Below are positions 5,443-64,000 of a stretch of 64,000 bases of DNA, piece by piece. The translations under genes were made by a program, and so were the position numbers. Each line of letters opens with the position of its first letter. The stretch's first letter is position 1. A model generated the notes under the pieces. It did not search any database, was not told where the DNA came from, and saw only the letters and a list, made by a program, of their open reading frames with translations. The DNA lies in NCBI GenBank assembly GCA_964016885.1, contig OZ024747.1, positions 73,222,001-73,286,000 of the forward strand, in the 5' to 3' direction. The DNA comes from Eledone cirrhosa. Lineage: Eukaryota.

Positions 5443-6124
5443 ATTGTTTCTACTTTAGGCACAAGGCCAGCAGTTACTCAGTACATTACTGGTACTTTAT
5501 TTTATCGACCCCGTAAGGATGAAAGGCAAAGTTAACCTCGGCGGGATTTGAACTCAGTTCGTAAAGGGACGTAACTGTACTGCAAAGCATGGCGATAGAC
5601 CCTCTACTGATACTGCCAATCCACCCCCTTAACATGGCGATGGACCCTCTACCGATACTGCCAATCCACCCCCTTAACATGGCGATAGACCCTCTACCGA
5701 TACTGCCAATCCACCACCTTAGCATGGCGATAGACCCTCTACCGATACTGCCAATCCACCCCCTTAACATGGCGATAGATCCTCTACCGATACTGCCAAT
5801 CCACCCCCTTAACATGGCGATAGACCCTCTACCGATACTGCCAATCCACCCCCTTAACATGGCGATAGACCCTCTACCGATACTGCCAATCCACCCCCTT
5901 AACATGGCGATAGACCCTCTACCGATACTGCCAATCCACCCCCTTAACATGGCGATAGACCCTCTACCGATACTGCCAATCCACCCCCTTAACATGGCGA
6001 TAGACCCTCTACCGATACTGCCAATCCACCCCCTTAACATGGCGATAGACCCTCTACCGATACTGCCAATCCACCCCCTTAACATGGCGATAGACCCTCT
6101 ACCGATACTGCCAATCCACCGCCC
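5443..6124 (-). mobile_element. tRNA-derived SINE with tandemly amplified 5' head
   Basis: On the minus strand: A-box-like TGGCAGTATCGG, B-box GAGTTCAAATCC, core GCCTTTCATCCTTACGGGGTCGATAAAATAAAGTACCAG, tail GGCCTTGTGCCTAAAGTAGAAAC. Confidence 0.85.
5588..6124. repeat. 45-bp tandem array, ~12 copies, derived from the SINE head
   Basis: Unit CATGGCGATAGACCCTCTACCGATACTGCCAATCCACCCCCTTAA; 15-aa periodicity in the overlapping ORFs. Confidence 0.95.
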
Positions 6125-6252
6125 TAGGGTATCATAATATATATTCCTCACTAAGTGATGAGTTATCTTACAGTGGAATTTCACCTGTGTACTCACAGGA
6201 TTATCAGACAAGACAGTTTTGTCTAATATATATATACATATATATATGTATG

Positions 6253-14876: not shown

Positions 14877-15485
14877 AGATTAGTAACAGCAGGAGCAGTA
14901 GTAGTGGAATGATGTGAGTAGCAGTGTGAGTGGATAGTAAATAGAGAGTAGCAGCAGCAGTAGGTGTGAGAGTGGCAGCTGGTTAACAGTTGTAGCGGAT
15001 ACCTGCAGTAGTAGGAAAAATTAAAGGGAAACAAAGAATGCAGTGAAGATGGTGGCTGTATCGACGACAGTGAGTTGTATGTGAGAGTAGCAGTAGCAGG
15101 AGAAGTAGGAGGAGGAAGAGGAGCAGGAGAATGATGACAAGCAAAACCTAGGTGCAAAAGTGAAAGTAAATAAGAAAGTAGCGGTTGTGAATAATAATTA
15201 TGATTGGTTGTGGAAGCAGGTGTAACAACAGTAATACAGGTAAGGCAGGTGGCGGTAAAATGTCAAGGGGAGAAATAAACGGCAGCAGTTGTTTCAGAAT
15301 TTGAACTGGTGGCAGAAGCATTGGTAAGGGGGTACTACTTACTACAGAAGACTATGTCTAGAGATGCTTAGGAGATAATAAAAGCACATTGGCAGCGGAA
15401 GGAAGTGAATTCCTCAAGGTGAAACAGTGCAGCACTACAAAAGACACCACAACAGATATGGTGAATGGAAAGAAGAAAATAAAAA

Positions 15486-17231
15486 GGCCAAGGTCATTGA
15501 CACGTGGAGTAGATTTAACGATAAGAACCACTGCCTAAGGCCAAGGTCATTGAAGCGTGGAGTAGAATTGGCTATAAGAACCACTGCCTAAGGCCAAGGT
15601 CATTGAAGCGTGGAGTAGAATTGGCTATAAGATTCACTGCCTAAGGCCAAGGTCATTGAAGCGTGGAGTAGAATTGGCTATAAGAACCACTGCCTACTGC
15701 CAAAGTCATTGAAGCGTGGAGTAGAATTGGCTATAAGAACCACTGCCTAAGGCCAAGGTCATTGAAGCGTGGAGTAGAATTGGCTATAAGAACCACTGCC
15801 TAAGGCCAAGGTCATTGAAGCGTGGAGTAGAATTGGCTATAAGAACCATTGCCTAAGGCCAAGGTCATTGAAGCGTGGAGTAGAATTGGCTATAAGAACC
15901 ACTGCCTAAGGCCAAGGTCATTGAAGCGTGGAGTAGAATTGGCTATAAGAGCCACTGCCTAAGGCCAAGGTCATTGAAGCGTGGAGTAGAATTGGCTATA
16001 AGAACCACTGCCTAAGGCCAAGGTCATTGAAGCGTGGAGTAGAATTGGCTATAAGAACCACTGCCTAAGGCCAAGGTCATTGAAGCGTGGAGTAGATTTG
16101 GCTATAAGAACCACTGCCTAAGGCCAAGGTCATTGAAGCGTGGAGTAGAATTGGCTATAAGAACCACTGCCTACTGCCAAAGTCATTGAAGCGTGGAGTA
16201 GAATTGGCTATAAGAACCACTGCCTAAGACCAAGGTGATTGAAGCGTGGAGTAGAATTGGCTATAAGAACCACTGCCTAAGGCCAAGGTCATTGAAGCGT
16301 GGAGTAGATTTGGCTATAAGAACCACTGCCTAAGTCCAAGGTCATTGAAGCGTGGAGTAGAATTGGCTATAAGAACCACTGCCTAAAGCCAAGGTCATTG
16401 AAGCGTGGAGTAGAATTGGCTATAAACACCACTGCCTAAGGCCAAGGTCATTGAAGCGTGGAGTAGAATTGGCTATAAGAACCCCTGCCTAAGGCCAAGG
16501 TCATTGAAGCGTGGAGTAGAATTGGCTATAAGGACCACTGCCTAAGGCCAAGTTCATTGAAGCGTGGAGTAGAATTGGCTATAAGAACCACTGCCTAAGG
16601 CCAAGGTCATTGAAGCGTGGAGTAGAATTGGCTATAAGAACCACTGCCTAAGGCCAAGGTCATTGAAGCGTGGAGTAGAATTGGCTATAAGATCCACTGC
16701 CTAAGGCCAAGGTCATTGAAGTGTGGAGTAGATTTGACTATACGAACCACTGCCTAAGGCCAAGGTCATTGAAGCGTGGAGTAGATTTGGCTATAAAAAC
16801 CCCTGCCTAAGGCCAAGGTCATTGAAGCGTGGAGTAGAATTGGCTATAAGAACCCCTGCCTAAGGCCAAGGTCATTGAAGCGTGGAGTAGAATTGGCTAT
16901 AAGATTCACTGCCTAAGGCCAAGGTCATTGAAGCGTGGAGTAGAATTGGCTATAAGAACCACTGCCTAATGCCAAGGTCATTGAAGCGTGGAGTAGAATT
17001 GGCTATAAGAACCACTGCCTAAGGCCAAGGTCATTGAAGCGTGGAGTAGAATTGGCTATAAGATCCACTGCCTAAGGCCAAGGTCATTGAAGTGTGGAGT
17101 AGATTTGACTATAAGAACCACTGCCTAAGGCCAAGGTCATTGAAGCGTGGAGTAGATTTGGCTATAAAAAGCCCTGCCTAAGGCCAAGGTCATTGAAGCG
17201 TGGAGTAGATTTGGCTATAAGAACCACTGCC
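15486..17231. repeat. 53-bp minisatellite, ~33 copies
   Basis: Unit GGCCAAGGTCATTGAAGCGTGGAGTAGAATTGGCTATAAGAACCACTGCCTAA, head-to-tail with no spacers. Confidence 0.97.
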
Positions 17232-18065: not shown

Positions 18066-18068
<3 letters not shown>

Positions 18069-18344
18069 ATATATTAATAAATGGAAACTATATTTATAAA
18101 ACCATATTTATTTTATTATATATATTTCAAGGGCAACCAAGGCAAACTATGGTGCGCTTTCATCAGACAAAAACAGATTTGTTTTATAAATAAATATTGC
18201 CATACCCGGAAAAAAAGACAACCTTAACGGTTGGAGCTTCTTTCTGATGAAAGCACACCATAATCTGCCTTGGTGGCCCTTGAAATATATATAATAAAAT
18301 AAATATGGTTTTATAAATATAGTTTCCATTTATAAATATATTGT
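18066..18344. repeat. Inverted repeat (~105-bp arms) of an HHR-bearing Penelope pLTR-like unit (family A)
   Basis: 18066-18170 is the imperfect reverse complement of 18241-18344. Confidence 0.85.
18111..18172 (-). ncRNA. Type I hammerhead ribozyme motif (family A)
   Basis: Minus strand: ttttgt-CTGATGA-aag...ctt-GAAA-tatataTA-ataaaa. The mirror copy on + at 18244-18299 has an intact core but a broken stem I. Confidence 0.7.
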
Positions 18345-18514: not shown

Positions 18515-18569
18515 ATATATATATATACGATATTAAACAAATGGAAACTATATTTATAAAACCATATTT

Positions 18570-18633
18570 ATTTCATTATACATATTTCGGGGATACCATA
18601 TTAAAAATATGGCATGCCTTCGTCAGATAAAAT
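18570..18633 (-). ncRNA. Type I hammerhead ribozyme motif (family A variant)
   Basis: Minus strand: attttat-CTGACGA-aggcatgccatatttttaatatggtatcccc-GAAA-tatgtaTA-atgaaat. Confidence 0.7.
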
Positions 18634-18914
18634 ACAATATATAAACAGTTTTATAAATAATTTTGACGTACCATAAATATGAGCGACCATTATGTAGGAA
18701 GTTGGTTTGGTAGTGAAGTGTTTATAAATATTTAGTGTTAAGCACAGTTATAAAGAAAGACGGAGAAAAAGAAGAAATGTATTTAAAGAAAAACAGAGAG
18801 AAATAGAGAGAGATAGGGGAGAGAGAAATAGGGAGGAGGTGAAAAAAGAGAGGCAACCGAAGGCAACAGATGAATAATAATAATTCATCAAACAAATTGA
18901 GAGGTTTAAGAGGG

Positions 18915-28752: not shown

Positions 28753-29182
28753 TAAAGTAATTAAGTCAAATATTTAAAATTTGGCTTCGTTTATTAAAGA
28801 TGTACTGCTATATATATTTCGGTGGCAGCCATCATTGGCTGTGACCTCTTCAGGCAGTCCGAATTGGTTTGGTAGAGACAGGTACACATGTTGTTAAAGT
28901 GTTTTACTCCGTCAATACTCCGATATATCCAGCTCCTGGTTGGGTTGTTATTTCTCTCAATATGATTCCAGTTCCTCAGAGAAATAACAACCTAACCAGG
29001 AGCTGGATATATCGGAGTATTGACGGAGTAAAACACTTTAACAACATGTGTACCTGTCTCTACCAAACCAATTCGGACTGCCTGAAGAGGTCACAGCCAA
29101 CGATGGCTGCCACCGAAATATATATAGCAGTACATCTTTAATAAACGAAGCCAAATTTTAAATATTTGACTTAATTATTTTA
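28753..29182. repeat. Long palindrome: ~205-bp arms, 20-nt loop, about 3 mismatches
   Basis: 28753-28957 is the reverse complement of 28978-29182. Confidence 0.95.
29077..29131 (+). ncRNA. Type I hammerhead ribozyme motif (family B); mirror copy on minus strand at 28804-28858
   Basis: actgc-CTGAAGA-ggtcacagcca acga tggctgccacc-GAAA-tatataTA-gcagt; 5-bp stem I and palindromic stem III. Confidence 0.8.
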
Positions 29183-29663
29183 CATTACTCTGGAGTAACC
29201 AAACCAACCTGCGTACTTCGTCGAGTGCTCCAATCTGCATACTCAGGTGTCGGTAAACAACCAACATATACTAAAAAAAAATAAAAATATATATATATAT
29301 ATATATGAACACGAAAATAGCGAGAGAGAGAAAAGAAGGGGAACTCAATTTGATGAGGGGGGGGGGGGGGGGGGGCGGCATTCGCGCCGACCTGCCCCTA
29401 ATCCGATAAATTAGGCCCTGCGCTCACACACACATATACACACGCACACACACACGCACACATGCATACATACATAGATAAATATATAGATATATACATA
29501 CACATATAAATAGATATATACATACATAGATATATTGATATATAATACATATATAGGTATATAGATATATAATAGATATATAAATATATAGATATATAGA
29601 TATATAGATATATACATACACATATATATATATATATATTTATACCCCCCCCCCCCCCCCCCC

Positions 29664-32169: not shown

Positions 32170-32930
32170 GGCGGTGGGTTGGCAGTATCGGTAGAGGGTC
32201 GGACGCCATGATAGGGCGGTGGGTTGGCAGTATCGGTAGAGGGTCGGACGCCATGATAGGGCGGTGGGTTGGCAGTATTGGTAGAGGGTCGGACGCCATG
32301 ATAGGGCGGTGGGTTGGCAGTATCGGTAGAGGGTCGGACGCCATGATAGGGCGGTGGGTTGGCAGTATCGGTAGAGGGTCGGACGCCATGATAGGGCGGT
32401 GGGTTGGCAGTATTGGTAGAGGGTCGGACGCCATGATAGGGCGGTGGGTTGGCAGTATCGGTAGAGGGTCGGACGCCATGATAGGGCGGTGGGTTGGCAG
32501 TATCGGTAGAGGGTCGGACGCCATGATAGGGCGGTGGGTTGGCAGTATCGGTAGAGGGTCGGACGCCATGATAGGGCGGTGGGTTGGCAGTATCGGTAGA
32601 GGGTCGGACGCCATGATAGGGCGGCGGATTGGCAGTATCGGTAGAGGGTCGGACGCCATGATAGGGCGGCGGATTGGCAGTATCGGTAGAGGGTCGGACG
32701 CCATGATAGGGTGGTGGGTTGGCAGTATCGGTAGAGGGTCGGACGCCATGATAGGGCGGTGGGTTGGCAGTATCGGTAGAGGGTCGGACGCCATGATAGG
32801 GCGGTGGGTTGGCAGTATCGGTAGAGGGTCGGACGCCATGATAGGGCGGTGAATTGGCAGTATCGGTAGAGGGTCGGACGCCATGATAGGGCGGTGGATT
32901 GGCAGTATCGGTAGAGGGTCGGACGCCATG
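32170..32930. repeat. 45-bp tandem array, ~17 copies, derived from the SINE head
   Basis: Unit GGCGGTGGGTTGGCAGTATCGGTAGAGGGTCGGACGCCATGATAG. Confidence 0.95.
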
Positions 32931-33360: not shown

Positions 33361-33784
33361 AGATCTAGCTGTCGTCTGTTCTACAGTGTGGATGTCATTC
33401 ACTTCGCACAGAAGTTTTGTTCAAATTTATTGAGGAAATTTTGTGAGTTCAAACTTAATTTTGATACAATTGTGTAGCTTGACCCTCCGTCTGAACTGTC
33501 AGGCGGTGGGTCAGCTCATCTTTACCCCTCCTAGAGGTGAAAAACCTGTTTTAAAAAAAATTTTGTGTAAAAAATTTCAATCGTCTAACAGAAATGTTAA
33601 ACGCAGCGAACGAAAATAGTGGTGGGGGGACAGCGGTAAGAGTTGTAAGCTCGCACGCTTTAGTCCTCCCTTCCTTCCCAACTAACGTCATAGAGAAGGA
33701 AGGAAAAATGAAAATAAAAACGGACGAATCTGCGGAGGAAAAAAAATTAAATGACGAAAACAACGAAAAAAAAAATTTGAAAAA

Positions 33785-35473
33785 TTGCATGACAATACTA
33801 ATAACACAAACAAAGACACAACAAACAAAAAAATAACAGTTGAAAATAACATCATATCAGAAAACAAAGCAGACGACCAGATTTCATTTGCACAGAAAAC
33901 AAAGAAATCTTTGACTTATATAGCGGAAAACATTTCAGATGTGGTACGAAGGATCACGGACGCAAAACAATACATAAGTGAAGGTGAGAATGGTATTTTA
34001 TTGGTAAAAATGCCTCAAGAATTCACGAAAGACATTGAAAGCCGAACGGTCAAGTTTCGGACCATCAACAACAGTACAAAAAAACCTGAACAGCCTTCTC
34101 AAGCAGATATCAAAACAGTACTCGCAGAAGTACTGAATGAAACAACTTTCATAAGAAAAGACAGACTGTATGGAAGTCTAGCAATTATCATGAAGAACGA
34201 ATCGGCGGCAAAAAAATGTGCTTTGTCACCGATTCGTTCGAAATATTTCACCTTTTATCCATCTTATATGGGAAAAAAAACTCAACGCATATGGCTGGAT
34301 GCAATGATGCCAGATGTGGACTACTGCTGGCTCATAGCTGGCTTCATCGATCCAGTGAATGACAACGTGATTTCCATTGGGAAAACCACAGGCAATGCGT
34401 TCAGTGGAACAGGTATAGAGCTGGTAGTACAAATGAAGCCTGAACGCATCGCCCAAATACCCGACAGAATCCTATTAGAGGACCACGGGTATATAAACAT
34501 TAGCGTGGAGGGGAGAAGGCCGTCCTGCCATATCTGTGCAGGCAGAGGGCACCTGAAGGCCGCTTGTCCACAACTCAACAAAAAGAAAACTCTGCTACCA
34601 ACACCAGCTCCACCACCACCACCACAACAGATAAACAAACAACAAAACTCAGTCCCACCCAACCCGTCCCTCAGTAACACCACAACACCACCACAACACA
34701 AACAGTCACAACACATTACCCCAAAACAAAATACAGGCCCACCCAACCTCTCACTCAATAAAACAACACAACCACCGCAGACACAACACACAACACAGTC
34801 TAACATAGTGACATCCATCTCCCCCACAAAGAAAACCAACACGGAAACATTACCAGCAAACATACCTCTTCCCTCCAACACTGAAGATAACCCAACGAAT
34901 TCGGAGGAAGAAACGGAGTCCTTCAGACAGATTAAAAGGAAAAAAAGAAAACATGTGCAAAACACACAAGGACAAACAACCCCCACCCAAATCGCAACAC
35001 AATCTAACAAAACAGAAAACACCCCTCCAGCAACAAACAAAACCAAACCTGCCCCTCCCCTCTTCGAAACACTCACACCATCGGAAAAAAAGACATTACA
35101 CTATACTTACATCAACAGAAATAATAATAAATTAAATGAACTCATATACAATAATCCTTCGGTACAAACCGAAGGTGTAAACTTTGTTTCATCAGAAAAC
35201 CACCCACATTTAAAACTAATAAAAATCCCAATGAACCTCTACCAAAAACTAAAAAAGGATTTTAAGGAGGACGTAGGACCACCCTCTGTCAAACCCATAA
35301 ACCGCGTCCTACTAAAAAGCTTTCCCCCTCCCCTTCCCCTCCCCAACACAACTCCAAACACCCCAACCCCACCACACACCGACGACCCCACACCACCACA
35401 AGACACCCCTTCACCCAACACCCCCGACCCCATGGAAGTCGTGCAACCCGAACCCCGGGAAGCGGAAAGGTAG
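33785..35473 (+). CDS. LINE ORF1 protein (gag-like CCHC knuckle, Pro/Thr-rich tail); start uncertain
   Basis: CHICAGRGHLKAAC matches CX2CX4HX4C. The listed start is TTG; the true N-terminus may be the ATG at 33594 in another frame. Confidence 0.85.
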   Translation: MHDNTNNTNKDTTNKKITVENNIISENKADDQISFAQKTKKSLTYIAENISDVVRRITDAKQYISEGENGILLVKMPQEFTKDIESRTVKFRTINNSTKKPEQPSQADIKTVLAEVLNETTFIRKDRLYGSLAIIMKNESAAKKCALSPIRSKYFTFYPSYMGKKTQRIWLDAMMPDVDYCWLIAGFIDPVNDNVISIGKTTGNAFSGTGIELVVQMKPERIAQIPDRILLEDHGYINISVEGRRPSCHICAGRGHLKAACPQLNKKKTLLPTPAPPPPPQQINKQQNSVPPNPSLSNTTTPPQHKQSQHITPKQNTGPPNLSLNKTTQPPQTQHTTQSNIVTSISPTKKTNTETLPANIPLPSNTEDNPTNSEEETESFRQIKRKKRKHVQNTQGQTTPTQIATQSNKTENTPPATNKTKPAPPLFETLTPSEKKTLHYTYINRNNNKLNELIYNNPSVQTEGVNFVSSENHPHLKLIKIPMNLYQKLKKDFKEDVGPPSVKPINRVLLKSFPPPLPLPNTTPNTPTPPHTDDPTPPQDTPSPNTPDPMEVVQPEPREAER

Positions 35474-35506
35474 GTCTCTACACTCTCCTTTGGCTCTGCC
35501 GCCCAC

Positions 35507-38500
35507 ATGGATGTGTTAAGAGTAGGATGTTTGAATGCACGTGGCCTGGGCTCAACTTGGAAGCAAGCAAAGCTTCTAAATGACCTCAGGTCATGTAGTA
35601 TAAATGTAATGGTTATCTGTGAGACTCGAATCAGCGTCATGCGGCAGCTGGCCCCCACCTTCGATGACTTTGAAGTGCATGCATCTCTCTGTCAACCTGG
35701 AGGTGGGGGTGGGGTTGTCGTGCTGCTGCAAAAACACCTGGGTCTTGCCGTACAGGTTGTGCACTCGGACCCGGAGGGTCGTTTGTTGGTGCTAGACGTT
35801 GGCAGTAGTGAAAGTGCGGCCTTGAGACTGGTCGCCGTCTACTCCCCTTTCGGAGCTGAACGGCCCGACTTCTTCCAGCGTTTGGAGACTTTTCTGGGAA
35901 CGTCGCGTTCCCTGCTTCTAGCGGGGGATTGGAATGACATCCTGGATGCACGTTGGGACTATGCAGGAGCATGTCCTAATAGAGGGGGGTGTAACAGCCT
36001 CAAGGGGTTACTCGACCGTTTTAACTTGGTCGATAGATATCGACTAGATTTTCCAACTGTGCCTACCTGGACTTGGAGAAACCACAGTGGTCAATCTAGA
36101 TCGTACTTAGATAGATTCTTAGTTAGAAGTAAGGATAGGGACATATTAAGCTGTCCAGAAATGCGCACGGTTGGCTACACGGATCACAAATTAGTGACCT
36201 GCGTGGTCAATCTCGAGAAAACACATAGACAGGGTCCCGGTTACTGGAAACTTAATTTGTCTTTACCGGCAAAAGAGACTTACAGAAACCGGATTAGCAG
36301 ATTAGTTAAGGAGAGGTTGACGGGTGCAATCGTCAACAACCGATGGTGGGCATCTCTCAAAAGAGAGATTAGAACAGAATCAATAAGTTATAGCAAGATG
36401 TTAGCTGCCAATAGGAATAGAAACGAGAAAGAATTAACAGGTAAATTAGAAGAGGCAATCAAGAGCGAAGATGTGGCCAGAGTGCTGGCATCGAGGACGG
36501 CCTTGAACCAGTTTTTCGATGCAAAGCATGAAGGCTGCGTCATTCGAAGTAAAATACGTGCTCTAGGTAATGAGGGGGCCAAAGCCGTTGGATGGGCCCG
36601 CGTGACAGAAGCTAAAAGTGGAAATCGATCCACCATCCGGTCGTTGCAAGACGAAGATGGACGAGTGATCCGGGAGCCTAAGCAGATGTGCGAGGCCTTT
36701 CAAAAGCACTTTGCCCGATTGTTCGGGGGAGGCGAGGGTCCGGGCCGGGGCGTGGATTTCGGTCCATACCTCGACGGCCTGCCGCGTCTCTCGAACAAAG
36801 AGGCAGAGTCCTGCGAGGGACCAATCTCGGCTGATGAGATCGGAGATGCGCTGAGCCAATGCAGCAGACGCAAATCTCCAGGTCTCGATGGTATACCTTA
36901 CGAACTTTATTTAGCAATGCCGGTCTTCTTCTCCGAACTCCTCGAAGCGGTCTACTGCAATTGGCAGCAGAACGGGAGAATTCCTTGTTCTGTAGCCAAG
37001 GGCGTAGTCACGCTGGTGAGGAAGGACGAGAACAAGGGGGATAGTATAAATAATTTTCGGCCCATAACCCTGCTAAACACAGAGTTAAAGATTTTGGCCA
37101 AGGTGTTAGCAAAGAGGTTGGCGCTTGTCGTGGGTGGCCTGGTGGGAGATGCGCAGACATGTGCTATCCCATCCAGGTCCATTCACGATAACCTCCACCT
37201 CATGCGATACATCATAGAGAGGGTTGGCAACAAACCCGGCTTCGGTGGGGCCCTGATCAACTTGGATCAGTCTAAGGCCTTCGATAGGGTCGACCATGGT
37301 TACCTGGATGCGGTGCTAGCGGCGGCTGGGTTCGGTCCTGTTTTCAGAGGCTGGATCACTGCCCTACATAGCAACCACATCTGTTCTAGGATCAAGGTGA
37401 ACGGCTACCTTTCGAAGCCGTTCGAAATCACACGATCCATTCGACAGGGGTGCCCTCTCTCCTCCCTTCTGTACGTATTGACTCTCGAGCCTTTACTGAG
37501 GAAGTTGGAGTTGTTGCAGGGTATCCCCCTGGAACCAGGATTGAGCAAAGCGGTGTCGGCCTACGCCGATGACGTAACAGTAATGGTATCAACCGACTCG
37601 GAGATCGAGGCGATCGGTACCTTACTGGAGGAGTACGAAAGGTTGTCAGGAGCGAAACTGAACCGGGAAAAATCCATCGGGCTGCAACTCGGAACGTGGA
37701 GAGGCAAACCGATGCCTCCTGACGGTGTCGTCGGACACTGGACGGAGGGCCCGGTAAAGTTGCTTGGGGTCTGGTTTGGACCGGACCTCCAGGTGGAAAA
37801 GAACTGGAACGAGGTTACGAACAAGGTGTTTGCACTAACCCAGAAATGGGCCAAGTGTAAGCTGTCCCTAAAAGGCCGGGCGGAGGTGGCGAACATTTAC
37901 ATAGCGTCCGTCACTTACTACCGCCTGACTGTCGTGCCTTGCCCTAAGGAAACACTCACCACCATGGAACGCATGCTCTTCCAATTTCTTTGGAAGAAGC
38001 GTCCTCCTATGGTGAGAAGATCCATCTGCTGCCAACAACCTTCGAAAGGAGGGCTGGGGATGCCGTGGTTGATGATGCGTAGGCACGCATTAAGGCTACG
38101 GCACCTACAGGTATTCCTCACTGGTCAACCGGTGTGGGCTCCGTTCGTGAAACGAGCCTTTCCGAGACTCGTCTCACTCACCGAGCTACAGTCCTGGGTC
38201 AAGCAAAGATCCGGAAAACTGGGAGACTGGCACACTGAGTGTGCTCAGGCGCTCAGGGCTCTCTGGCAAGCGGGCCGGGCCATCGGTGGAGAATCCACCT
38301 CATCATTCTATAGAGGGCTGGTGGCTAGCAGGGGCGATGACACCCTTGGAGAGTCGCTGGACATGGAAGAAGACGAACTGGCCAGCCTGTTCGGTAGGAC
38401 TTTCGGCCCAGGACCAATGGACAACTTCCAGAAGTCACTGGCCTGGCAGTGCTACCGAGGGGCTCTACCTGTTCGAGAGAGGCTCTACAGACACGGGCGC

Positions 38501-38944
38501 CCGGGCAGGGATCCCTCAAAAAAGATTTGCCCTAGATGCGTGCGTCACGAAGAAACCGTGGCGCACGCATTGGTGCAATGTCCGGGCGTGGCTGATCTGT
38601 GGGGCTACGCCGAACAACTGCTGTCGCGGGTGGCGCCGATTAAATTGACCGCCGAGTCCGTGATGACAATCAAACCGCCTCCCCTCTTCACAAAGGAAGC
38701 AAAGGCGGTTTTTCTGTGCGTAATAGCCATGTTGAAAGAGGTTGTTTGGTGGACACGATTGAAAGGTCTGAGGTCAGGCAACTTCCTCTCTGGCCATAGT
38801 CTGGTCTACTTCTTCCGATATCACTTCGGAAGAAGGATAAGAATGGAGAGAGAGGTGCTTGGCCACAGGCAGTTTTATGAAAGGTGGGTGATAGTGGCGA
38901 GAATGGCTCGTGTAAATGGGCCTTCTCTGTATACCATCCTGTAG
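35507..38944 (+). CDS. LINE ORF2 protein: APE endonuclease, reverse transcriptase and C-terminal CCHC (1145 aa, intact)
   Basis: LNARGL, CETR, AGDWN, SYLDRF, TDH (APE); GYWKLN, KSPGLDG, FRPITLLN, DQSKAFDRV, RQGCPLS, AYADD (RT); CPRC..ETVAHALVQC. Confidence 0.97.
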   Translation: MDVLRVGCLNARGLGSTWKQAKLLNDLRSCSINVMVICETRISVMRQLAPTFDDFEVHASLCQPGGGGGVVVLLQKHLGLAVQVVHSDPEGRLLVLDVGSSESAALRLVAVYSPFGAERPDFFQRLETFLGTSRSLLLAGDWNDILDARWDYAGACPNRGGCNSLKGLLDRFNLVDRYRLDFPTVPTWTWRNHSGQSRSYLDRFLVRSKDRDILSCPEMRTVGYTDHKLVTCVVNLEKTHRQGPGYWKLNLSLPAKETYRNRISRLVKERLTGAIVNNRWWASLKREIRTESISYSKMLAANRNRNEKELTGKLEEAIKSEDVARVLASRTALNQFFDAKHEGCVIRSKIRALGNEGAKAVGWARVTEAKSGNRSTIRSLQDEDGRVIREPKQMCEAFQKHFARLFGGGEGPGRGVDFGPYLDGLPRLSNKEAESCEGPISADEIGDALSQCSRRKSPGLDGIPYELYLAMPVFFSELLEAVYCNWQQNGRIPCSVAKGVVTLVRKDENKGDSINNFRPITLLNTELKILAKVLAKRLALVVGGLVGDAQTCAIPSRSIHDNLHLMRYIIERVGNKPGFGGALINLDQSKAFDRVDHGYLDAVLAAAGFGPVFRGWITALHSNHICSRIKVNGYLSKPFEITRSIRQGCPLSSLLYVLTLEPLLRKLELLQGIPLEPGLSKAVSAYADDVTVMVSTDSEIEAIGTLLEEYERLSGAKLNREKSIGLQLGTWRGKPMPPDGVVGHWTEGPVKLLGVWFGPDLQVEKNWNEVTNKVFALTQKWAKCKLSLKGRAEVANIYIASVTYYRLTVVPCPKETLTTMERMLFQFLWKKRPPMVRRSICCQQPSKGGLGMPWLMMRRHALRLRHLQVFLTGQPVWAPFVKRAFPRLVSLTELQSWVKQRSGKLGDWHTECAQALRALWQAGRAIGGESTSSFYRGLVASRGDDTLGESLDMEEDELASLFGRTFGPGPMDNFQKSLAWQCYRGALPVRERLYRHGRPGRDPSKKICPRCVRHEETVAHALVQCPGVADLWGYAEQLLSRVAPIKLTAESVMTIKPPPLFTKEAKAVFLCVIAMLKEVVWWTRLKGLRSGNFLSGHSLVYFFRYHFGRRIRMEREVLGHRQFYERWVIVARMARVNGPSLYTIL

Positions 38945-60730: not shown

Positions 60731-61205
60731 ATTAAAATAATCTTTAATTGATTTTCATAATTAATTGGACCATTCAATTTACAGGGATATGTAAAAAATC
60801 GTATTTAATGCCCTGTTTACATACCGACATATTAGATATATGTATATATTATTTATACACAATGGTGCAGACTTGGTTACATACTGGGTTTTCACAGATA
60901 CAACTTTATCATACACTTCGGCTGATACCACACTTCTTAATATAATACTAAGACCTAATAATGAGTATATATATACCCATCAAATACATATTTTATTGTT
61001 CCCGATTAGATGACATACACGTCTTCTGATGAGGAACCGATTAGATTAGATAATCTGTTAAAGATGTCATTTTTCTCAATTTACAAGGAAAATCCTATTT
61101 TCTGGCAAGTTTACATGCCTATATATTAAATATATGTATATATTTATAAAGGTAGGTGTACTCTCAGTTACACACTGTATTTATACCGATATAATTTTAT
61201 CAATT

Positions 61206-61634: not shown

Positions 61635-63095
61635 AAATGTGCAATAAAATATCTTTGAATGTGCGCATGTATGGTTGTGTTTATATATTATAACAACTAA
61701 TTTAAAATTTAGTTAAATGAGGTCAAGGAGAATGCTATTCTATTAAGGCCCTACTCCCAAAACATTCGTATCATTTACTAGCAATGGCAATGTAAATCCA
61801 AATTGCCTCTTTGTGAAACTGAGAAGTCACCAATTACCATATGTGTATCTAAATCATTTTATATGCCTAAACATACACATTCACGTATAAGCACGTACAC
61901 ATCTCTCACACATATTTACACACATACATATGTAGATAATGACCTGCATTGACACACACATATATGTACACTCCCTTTCATTCATATATATATACACCCA
62001 TACATACCATTTATAAACGCATACATTTAAACACACATATGCAGAATCACATATACATCTACTTCCTGTACGCTCAGAAAGAAAACAGAGTTGCTGACAA
62101 GGCAATGAAAGAGGACATATATATTTTCTCGAGCAGCTAGAAATAGCAGTTAAATCTTCGGAAAATCATTCCCTACTCTCTTGAAAGTAGATTATGCGCT
62201 TTGGTTCCAAAATACATGGAAAAAATATTATTCACGTCTTGAATACGTATGATGAAAGATCTGTTCCATCAGGTCTGAAGTAAATCCTTCTCCCTCAATG
62301 CTGGCAATGGTTGGGTGGCTTATCAGGGTCAGATAATACAGGTCGGAGAGAAATTATCTTCAACAAACATTCCGTATCCCAACACGCCAACTACCATACA
62401 GAGTGGAGGTTACAGGGTGCAAAAGTATGGTAGATCCAGCACTACTTCTATACAAAGTGTATTGAGTGCTTTTTATCATGACACCAATATGAAAGAGGTC
62501 ACCATATTCTCGTCCTAACGTAAGAGTTTTCTCTACACTATATTGCCTCCGTTCGATCACCATCCTCTTCACATAATGTAGCATGAAGGAAGACCAAGCT
62601 AAAGACAAGACAACACTCTCGCCTACCCCCGTTGACCATACAAAATGATGTCCCAAATGAGTCATTGCAAAAGAGTCAATCAGTGTCCTAAGCATGAAGG
62701 GAGGCAATTTGCTAAATTTGCTAAATTTGCTAAATTTGCTAAATTTATTAGTGAGAAATAACAGATTTATATAGATTATAAGGAACATAGAATCATAACC
62801 TGAAATTAAAATAGTTTATATGTATACTTATTGGTATAAAGTTTAGGAAAAGATAACCGTAAAAGGGAAATAAAATTATGCAGTTCATTAGTAGTAGAAT
62901 ATTAATTATAGGTAAACTAATTTAAAAAAAGTGTTATTATAATAATTTCTAAAGTGTATATTAATTAGGTTTATAATATTTAAAAGTTCTTCTCAGTTTA
63001 TGATTACATGATATAATTAATTCCTGTCGTTTATTTAATAGGATATCCTTAGATTTCATTATTTCAAAAAGTTCCTGGGAACATAATCTACATTC

Positions 63096-63246
<151 letters not shown>

Positions 63247-63377
63247 GATAAATCTACCAAGAGTTTACGGTAGTGTCCAATCCGTATGAAGAACTCAATG
63301 TAATCCGGATATCATGGAAAGAAGAGATGCATTCAAAAATCACTTTCGGTGAAAGATAAACGGAATACAGAGTCAAG

Positions 63378-63795
63378 ATAAAATATTAAAAAAATAATGA
63401 ATAAAACAATGAAACAGTTCCTTATATTAAACAAAAAAAGTTCATTATTTAACGATCGTTTCTAGGACATATATGTGTTAGAATTGGTATGCATATTCAA
63501 CAGATCTATGTACAAAATTATACAAAATTATACAAATTATCAAATATAATATACATACCAACACATACATATGCCGTCTTCAGAAATAATGAAGACGGCA
63601 TATGTATGTGTTGGTATGTATATTATATTTGATAATTTGTATAATTTTGTATAATTTTGTACATAGATCTGTTGAATATGCATACCAATTCTAACACATA
63701 TATGTCCTAGAAACGATCGTTAAATAATGAACATTTTTTGTTTAATATAAGGAACTGTTTCATTGTTTTATTCATTATTTTTTTAAATATTTTAT
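63378..63795. repeat. Long near-perfect palindrome: ~205-bp arms, 7-nt loop
   Basis: 63378-63582 is the reverse complement of 63590-63795. Confidence 0.95.
63441..63593 (-). ncRNA. Type I hammerhead with ~114-nt stem II (family C)
   Basis: Minus strand: ttcattattt-CTGAAGA-cggcatatgtatgtgtt...aacacatatatgtccta-GAAA-cgatc-GTT-aaataatgaa; 10-bp stem I. Confidence 0.75.
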
Positions 63796-64000
63796 ATATA
63801 TATATATATATATAACAAGAGTATCATGTTAACACATCAAAGCAACATGTGGATTACAAAACAATATATATATGTGTGTGTATGTGTATAAATACATATA
63901 TATATATATATATACATATATACATATATATACATACACACTCACTGACACACATACAATTATGCACACACACACACACACATAAATATACATATATACA

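Follow-up and report, generated by a model that had tools for sequence, protein, structure and literature searches.

The DNA analysed here (the window) is a stretch of 64,000 nucleotides from Eledone cirrhosa (assembly GCA_964016885.1, contig OZ024747.1, positions 73,222,001 to 73,286,000 of the forward strand). Near its end lies a 418-bp palindrome that carries a hammerhead motif and is bounded on both sides by (TA)n. The features of this locus are listed below, where signed element coordinates take C3 of the hammerhead core as 0 and PLE stands for Penelope-like retroelement.

63096..63243, no strand: (TA)n target tract, left
63244..63593, minus: tailed arm, a 5'-truncated copy of a PLE pLTR, element -10 to +339
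63244..63377, minus: tail of about 135 nt, between the 3' end sites at about +204 and +339
63386-63582 and 63590-63786: exact inverted arms of 197 bp with 1 mismatch and a 7-nt centre
63442..63592, minus: type-I hammerhead motif, predicted cut at 63451/63450
63506..63558, minus: candidate 53-nt GT-AG intron in stem II (speculative)
63583..63593, no strand: head-to-head junction with the 7-nt centre and a TGAA overlap at 63590-63593
63590..63592, minus: initiator-like TCA, its A at 63590 (-7) being the putative capped RNA 5' end
63590..63795, plus: short arm, an inverted pLTR copy, element +1 to about +204, without a tail
63795..63815, no strand: (TA)n target tract, right

The initial annotation had described a 418-bp palindrome with a complete hammerhead motif on the minus strand only and TGAA microhomology at the turn, and all of this holds. 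The arms differ by one mismatch and one 1-nt indel, the palindrome growing to 63378-63795 once that indel is allowed; the TGAA overlap lies at 63590-63593, and the plus arm begins at U4 (63590), so that C3 and stem I's 5' strand are missing from it. Two points were absent from that first reading: both outer ends of the palindrome adjoin (TA)n, and the minus arm continues for about 135 nt past the palindrome to 63244, this extension being a PLE tail. The tailed arm matches the pLTR of a near-full-length copy, L064, with 98.3% identity over 353 bp. The palindrome is a short head-to-head PLE insertion in a (TA)n tract and, taken singly, an ordinary dead insertion. An older relic of the same PLE lineage, comprising the ORF end and part of the 3' UTR with 75-93% identity to L064, lies at 62740-63097 on the minus strand and spans the same (TA)n tract.

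A young PLE family inserting into (TA)n accounts for the palindrome as well as for the hammerhead motif with its 114-nt stem II. Exact matches to the 5' side of the core number 9,465, which puts the family above 9,000 copies; an anchor for one subfamily gave 1,341 exact matches and a downstream anchor 5,200, with 0 matches for the reversed-pattern controls. The parent ORF was found in 20 long loci and adjoins a pLTR of the focal type. It has the organization of an EN+ PLE, with a single ORF carrying a PLE-type RT with YRDD, a Cys linker and, at the C terminus, a GIY-YIG domain with CCHH (motifs read in L064, L074 and L062); the linker has three cysteines and a CP motif, in a spacing that departs from the written CX2-5CxxC-like pattern. 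The layout of L064 is pLTR-ORF-3'UTR-pLTR with an inverted copy upstream, and thus combines a partial pLTR tandem, an adjacent inverted 5'-truncated copy and a tail at one end. Copies end in (TA)n, in keeping with microsatellite targeting. By its motifs the parent element would be a PLE of the Neptune/Nematis type. It is a coding family that yields head-to-head pairs, rather than the head-to-tail non-coding array of a non-LTR retrozyme.

None of the 20 long loci holds a fully intact ORF, a Pfam scan of the element's own ORF gave no direct match, and a PDB search with a 23-sequence profile gave none. Among 76 homologues, four were scanned, of which P0034 matched RVT_1 (E 2e-7) and P0001 matched GIY-YIG weakly (E 0.012). 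An Asn/Thr/Lys-rich insert of about 100 aa follows the RT region of the parent ORF in L064 (3350-3700, minus strand) and recalls the N-rich inserts reported for rotifer PLEs. The sampled loci included one tandem array (L072/L073, G000:C1:162168400-162182100), in which six pLTR copies stand 2.2-2.9 kb apart and share one junction; it was apparently amplified after insertion. In L001, L019 and L026, different PLE families lie adjacent in the same (TA)n tracts.

The copies of the family have two alternative 3' end sites, at about +204 and about +339, and inverted pairs tend to show one of each. Of 54 head-to-head pairs (including the focal locus and three loci chosen by BLAST), 52 combine a tailed with a short arm, and an internal read-through copy is part of each of the other 2; 51 had been scored as tailed/short at first, one exception proving to be a false tail call. 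An inverted partner at the junction was present for 47 of 63 short arms, and in 45 of these 47 it was of the opposite type. The remaining 16 of 63 have no inverted partner at the junction, many apparently solo short arms carry a short inverted tail piece, and 25 short arms have a tailed partner. The two arms of an insertion differ at one site or none in 34 of 45 pairs, as against 7% across pairs. A possible splice donor where the tail ends was discarded, because the GT of L064 is AT in L239.

The 5' ends of the arms are constrained as well. They were mapped in the first 100 listed of the 5,200 downstream-anchor matches, an anchor that lies downstream of the predicted cut site, and in the first 100 listed of the 1,341 subfamily matches, all on contig C1. 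Arm ends were set by exact matching; gapped extension made false ends at -16..-21 beside (TA)n. Removal of one duplicate left 99 arms in the downstream-anchor set, of which 30 extend more than 290 nt upstream (listed C1 matches); among the 69 remaining 5' ends, 39 fall at -8..+1, where 1.5 would be expected, with the proviso that both arms of one insertion are non-independent data points. In the union of 169 arms, from which the duplicate array L072 and the three BLAST-chosen loci were left out, 28 ends lie at -7 and 2 at -8. Genome-wide, 454 of 9,465 copies diverge at -7 and 2,861 of the remaining 9,011 at -8, and only 3,876 reach -10, a drop that is probably due in part to subfamily variation. 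In the sister family, represented in the window by the 43.3-kb locus, 23 of 38 mapped ends lie at -13..+1. In both families, inversion points are thus far from random and favour the ribozyme's 5' edge, as the initial annotation had proposed.

The A of an initiator-like TCA (-7) forms a sharp limit to the 5' ends, beyond which G is in excess. Copies diverging at -8 have G there in 616 of 2,861 cases (21.5%), against a background of 9% in junction flanks, and among the first 100 listed of each the ratio of G to T is 22:23 at -8, as against 9:78 at the next base inward (p=2e-6). Some of these G's are preceded by (TA)n or by unrelated bases, and a G is present on both arms in some insertions; part of the G's could be templated by the partner arm (for instance L298, L315, L321). 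In L1 and SVA elements, an untemplated 5' G has been attributed to copying of the cap (PMC3287187), and the G excess here is likewise consistent with copying of an RNA cap. Position -7 would then be the transcription start in the upstream pLTR; a start site within the pLTR has been reported for Penelope and Chlamys-3 (PMC2377424, PMC8557442). The simplest reading is that the junctions mark the RNA 5' end, which in the focal family would be located in stem I. Palindromes would therefore turn at the ribozyme edge because stem I, in its 5' strand, happens to contain the start site. Such pile-ups of 5' ends may offer a route to PLE start sites from DNA alone.

In L1 twin priming, both ends of the target prime cDNA, and microhomology joining of the products leads to an inversion. 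We propose, with a probability of about 0.68, that the insertions studied here arise from two cDNAs that are primed by the two target ends at fixed start sites and are joined at the capped 5' end of the RNA. Each end of the cut target would prime at one of two fixed RT start sites, internal to the RNA and a few hundred nt from -7, and both cDNAs would run to the capped 5' end of the element RNA, where microhomology or end-joining would unite their 3' ends, in many cases together with templated inserts. In contrast to L1 twin priming, both starts would thus be fixed, and the arms copy overlapping sequence and often both reach the RNA 5' end. The copied RNA was not cleaved by the ribozyme, given that almost all copies cross the predicted cut site. 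Pairs could stem either from one RNA read twice or from two RNAs of the same source. The roughly 30 of 99 arms that extend more than 290 nt upstream derive from the downstream pLTR or a tandem transcript. Both arms of long pairs are of this kind, which requires two RNAs or the re-reading of one and speaks somewhat against the proposal.

Several of these steps have precedents. The protein of the anole PLE PAc initiates reverse transcription internally in vitro at two sites that bound the tail, and it cuts and extends both target strands with no need for ribozyme cleavage (PMC11167929). The origin of the inverted repeats and the one-sided tail of PLEs is stated to be open (PMC8557442, PMC11167929, PMC3846280), and our literature search, judged mainly from abstracts, found no published account of a cap-join or twin-priming model for PLEs. 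At base level, the present family shows that each of the two arms takes one of two 3' ends and that the 5' limit goes with a cap-type G. Taken together, these junction rules favour a single, testable mechanism and speak against ribozyme cleavage having a part in it. If this mechanism is true, the inverted pLTR and the one-sided tail would be the join of two cDNAs at a capped RNA end.

An alternative is that one cDNA, on arriving at the 5' end of the RNA, folds back by microhomology and primes itself, with endonuclease resolution setting the end of the second arm. Self-priming has been proposed for PLE palindromes (PMC3846280) and endonuclease resolution for the tail (PMC8557442). The near-identity of the two arms of an insertion also speaks for this alternative. 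The focal junction itself, with a feasible 7-nt loop and a TGAA overlap to -10, is also compatible with single-strand snap-back, and its centre was found again with other flanks at four other loci (obtained partly by searching with the focal arm) and once in the sister family. However, in 15 of 19 short junctions both arms reach -4 or beyond, that is, to within 3 nt of -7 or past it, and most short junctions need two cDNA ends because a folded-back strand cannot copy its own last bases. Centres of 0-2 nt (8 of 19) and a G on both arms cannot be made by one strand copying itself; inserted bases occur in 10 of 19. In addition, a copied short cDNA could not gain a tail unless the tailed arm always came first. 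Folding back of a single strand, as the initial annotation had it, is therefore an unlikely origin for these junctions, many of which need two separate cDNA ends, and the extra G fits a capped 5' end instead.

The limit at -7 could also be an RNA processing site or a structural stop for RT, followed by end-joining. Hammerhead cleavage follows the NUH rule, with which UC/A is compatible, and the region is highly structured. As read from the sequence, however, the flanks of -7 are unable to pair with the hammerhead arms as a substrate, and cutting in trans at -8/-7 was rejected on the same ground. The TCA limit also recurs in another family at 122 nt from the core, and a processed end would not produce a cap-type G excess. 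We consider such an origin of the limit decidedly improbable, and the RNA 5' end remains our preferred explanation for it.

The initial annotation further pointed to a ribozyme-linked fold-back, which would have the ribozyme direct integration by its cleavage or its fold. Two other hammerhead families in the window bear on this idea, the first as a control and the second too mixed for a clean one:

28753-29280: third PLE-type family, a head-to-head pair with the tail on the plus arm; canonical minimal hammerhead, 249 anchor matches
18066-18344 and 18530-18660: small-hammerhead family (18.2 kb); 41,359 exact anchor matches, many subfamilies

In the 28.9-kb family, for which seven of the sampled loci had been picked as close pairs, 12 of 46 arms end at -126..-122, at a TCA of the family's own, and 3 of 6 ends at -122 are preceded by G; only 1 of 46 arms ends within 10 nt of the core. 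This pile-up 122 nt upstream of the core leaves the ribozyme unsupported as the cause of the turn. All-versus-all mapping of the heterogeneous 18.2-kb family gave a merely suggestive picture, with several ends at -74..-82. It had been claimed that three of four palindromes in the window turn at the ribozyme edge. This stands for the focal locus and fails for the 28.9-kb palindrome, which turns 103-122 nt upstream; the 18.2-kb palindrome has one arm ending at the edge (-1) and the other away from it (-74), and the arms of the 43.3-kb palindrome end at -9 and +44.

What speaks for a directing role of the ribozyme is the overlap of the junction hot spot with stem I in the focal and sister families, together with covariation at the base of stem II. 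Against this, ends show no excess at the cut site, with 2 of 69 falling within +128..+138 where 1.7 would be expected. Moreover, mutation of the hammerhead left insertion by the anole PLE unchanged in vitro (PMC11167929), and PLE clades without canonical hammerheads make the same inverted units (PMC8557442). The monomer fold predicted here pairs the two core strands with each other. Ribozyme-directed fold-back is thus a very improbable mechanism, and the ribozyme is probably not the cause of the turn.

Fold-back reads can create palindromes, but the chance that this one is an assembly or chimeric-read artefact is negligible: its arms differ by a substitution and an indel, its flanks are unmirrored, its tail is on one arm only in a family-wide asymmetry, its arm ends are the two 3' sites of the family, dozens of other loci share the layout, and other loci that repeat the centre between different flanks speak against a chimeric read. 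The palindrome was also rejected as a mobile unit in itself, given that the loci sharing its centre carry the tail on either arm and differ in their flanks.

Returning to the hammerhead, the core motifs, stems I and III and the cut site of type I are present on the minus strand: stem I at 63592-63584/63450-63442, the core at 63583-63577 and the GAAA at 63462 (CUGAnGA plus GAAA), a palindromic 2-bp helix III and an NUH cut site. The 114-nt stem II (63576-63463) pairs at its base as the initial annotation stated. We compared 102 distinct full-length copies from both families, a few sister copies being binned with the focal family. The core CUGAAGA is present in 101 of them, the search pattern itself having demanded a core. 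At the base of stem II, one pair occurs as G.U, A-U and G-C, and others alternate between A-U and G-C. Among five aligned copies from two lineages, from which the structure was also derived, 4 of the 7 pairs at the base of the stem show changes in both partners. The covariation alignment thus bears out the earlier view that structure is kept between two divergent families, with compensatory changes at the stem II base.

Some features depart from a standard hammerhead. The canonical G10.1-C11.1 pair that closes stem II is absent, a C.A mismatch at 10.1/11.1 is conserved in 98 of 102 copies and a C.C mismatch in 95 of 102, and Rfam gave no match in the window at gathering thresholds. In five of five examples, the predicted free fold was 2-5.5 kcal/mol more stable than the hammerhead-constrained fold. 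Self-cleavage activity is therefore uncertain, because the G10.1-C11.1 pair is absent and the free fold is predicted to beat the hammerhead fold; it is possible that a dimer or a protein aids the predicted ribozyme. A hammerhead with a very long stem II and a C.A closing pair would go unnoticed with present descriptors; this may be relevant to PLE clades from which hammerheads are reported to be absent. Such variants may already be described in the literature. At 61012-61060 on the plus strand, another CUGAUGA core-like motif precedes a short hairpin and has no clear GAAA.

The otherwise divergent stem II retains a donor-like signal in 97 and an acceptor-like signal in 96 of the 102 distinct copies, 42-64 nt apart and in both families. 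The chance that they bound a retained 5'-UTR intron, as in Penelope, is perhaps about one in three; the candidate introns are very short, with both signals also engaged in stem pairing. A search for precisely spliced genomic copies returned 3 matches, all template switches and none precise, a result that is neutral on the intron because PLEs retain introns. Contigs from three runs of one sample (type unspecified) that cover the pLTR-ORF contained no joint removing the candidate intron. It is tempting to speculate that PLEs use fixed twin priming and that, in this family, the transcript starts in stem I of an unusual hammerhead with a giant stem II, in which a retained intron is concealed and its donor sequestered by pairing; splicing, folding and self-decapping would then be coupled in the mRNA. 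This combined picture is a doubtful one. In the 18.2-kb family, a conserved donor-like GTATGT/GTACGT lies about 55 nt before an AG just past the core, so that splicing could remove half of the ribozyme.

The feature as a whole is of a known class. Head-to-head pLTRs, one-sided tails and pLTR hammerheads are known PLE features: inverted pLTRs, tails at one side and head-to-head palindromes have been described (PMC3846280, PMC8557442), as have pLTR-borne hammerheads (Cervera and de la Pena, 2014, PMC4209133). With the EN+ PLEs Neptune and Nematis (Arkhipova et al., 2013, PMC3846280; Craig et al., 2021, PMC8557442), the focal family shares a single RT and C-terminal GIY-YIG ORF, a Cys linker, pLTRs, an adjacent inverted 5'-truncated copy, a tail at one end, (TA)n targeting and palindromes. 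Its tail is about 135 nt, whereas those given for Neptune/Nematis PLEs are 30-40 nt, and, in further distinction, the ORF starts about 490 nt after the core and junctions pile up at one base. The rule of one tailed and one short arm is near-absolute here, whereas the corresponding features are termed "optional" or "often" present in those two papers.

The PLE hammerheads of Cervera and de la Pena (PMC4209133) are likewise of type I, located in the pLTR and equipped with a short palindromic helix III that suits dimer cleavage. Stem II is about 100-125 nt here compared with 6-8 bp there, its base has a conserved C.A in place of the G10.1-C11.1 pair termed highly conserved in that study, and the possible intron lies within stem II, whereas the D. 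virilis intron ends at helix I. With the Poseidon element PAc of Anolis (Frangieh et al., 2024, PMC11167929), the family has in common two internal RT starts that bound the tail, AT-rich targets, an uncleaved RNA template and the cutting and extension of both strands. Inverted pairs, the assignment of one start site to each target end and the mapping of 5' junctions do not feature in the accessible parts of that work.

The window contains several other repeats. A LINE at 33755-38944 on the plus strand has an open ORF1 frame of 572 aa and an ORF2 of 1156 aa with endonuclease, RVT_1 and zf-RVT domains, and a second LINE copy at 1196-2269, also on the plus strand, shows 94% protein identity over 295 aa. 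Two arrays of a 45-bp minisatellite (5588-6125 and 32170-32930) are related and lie in opposite orientation, being 84-85% complementary, and a 53-bp array of 33 copies occupies 15484-17231.
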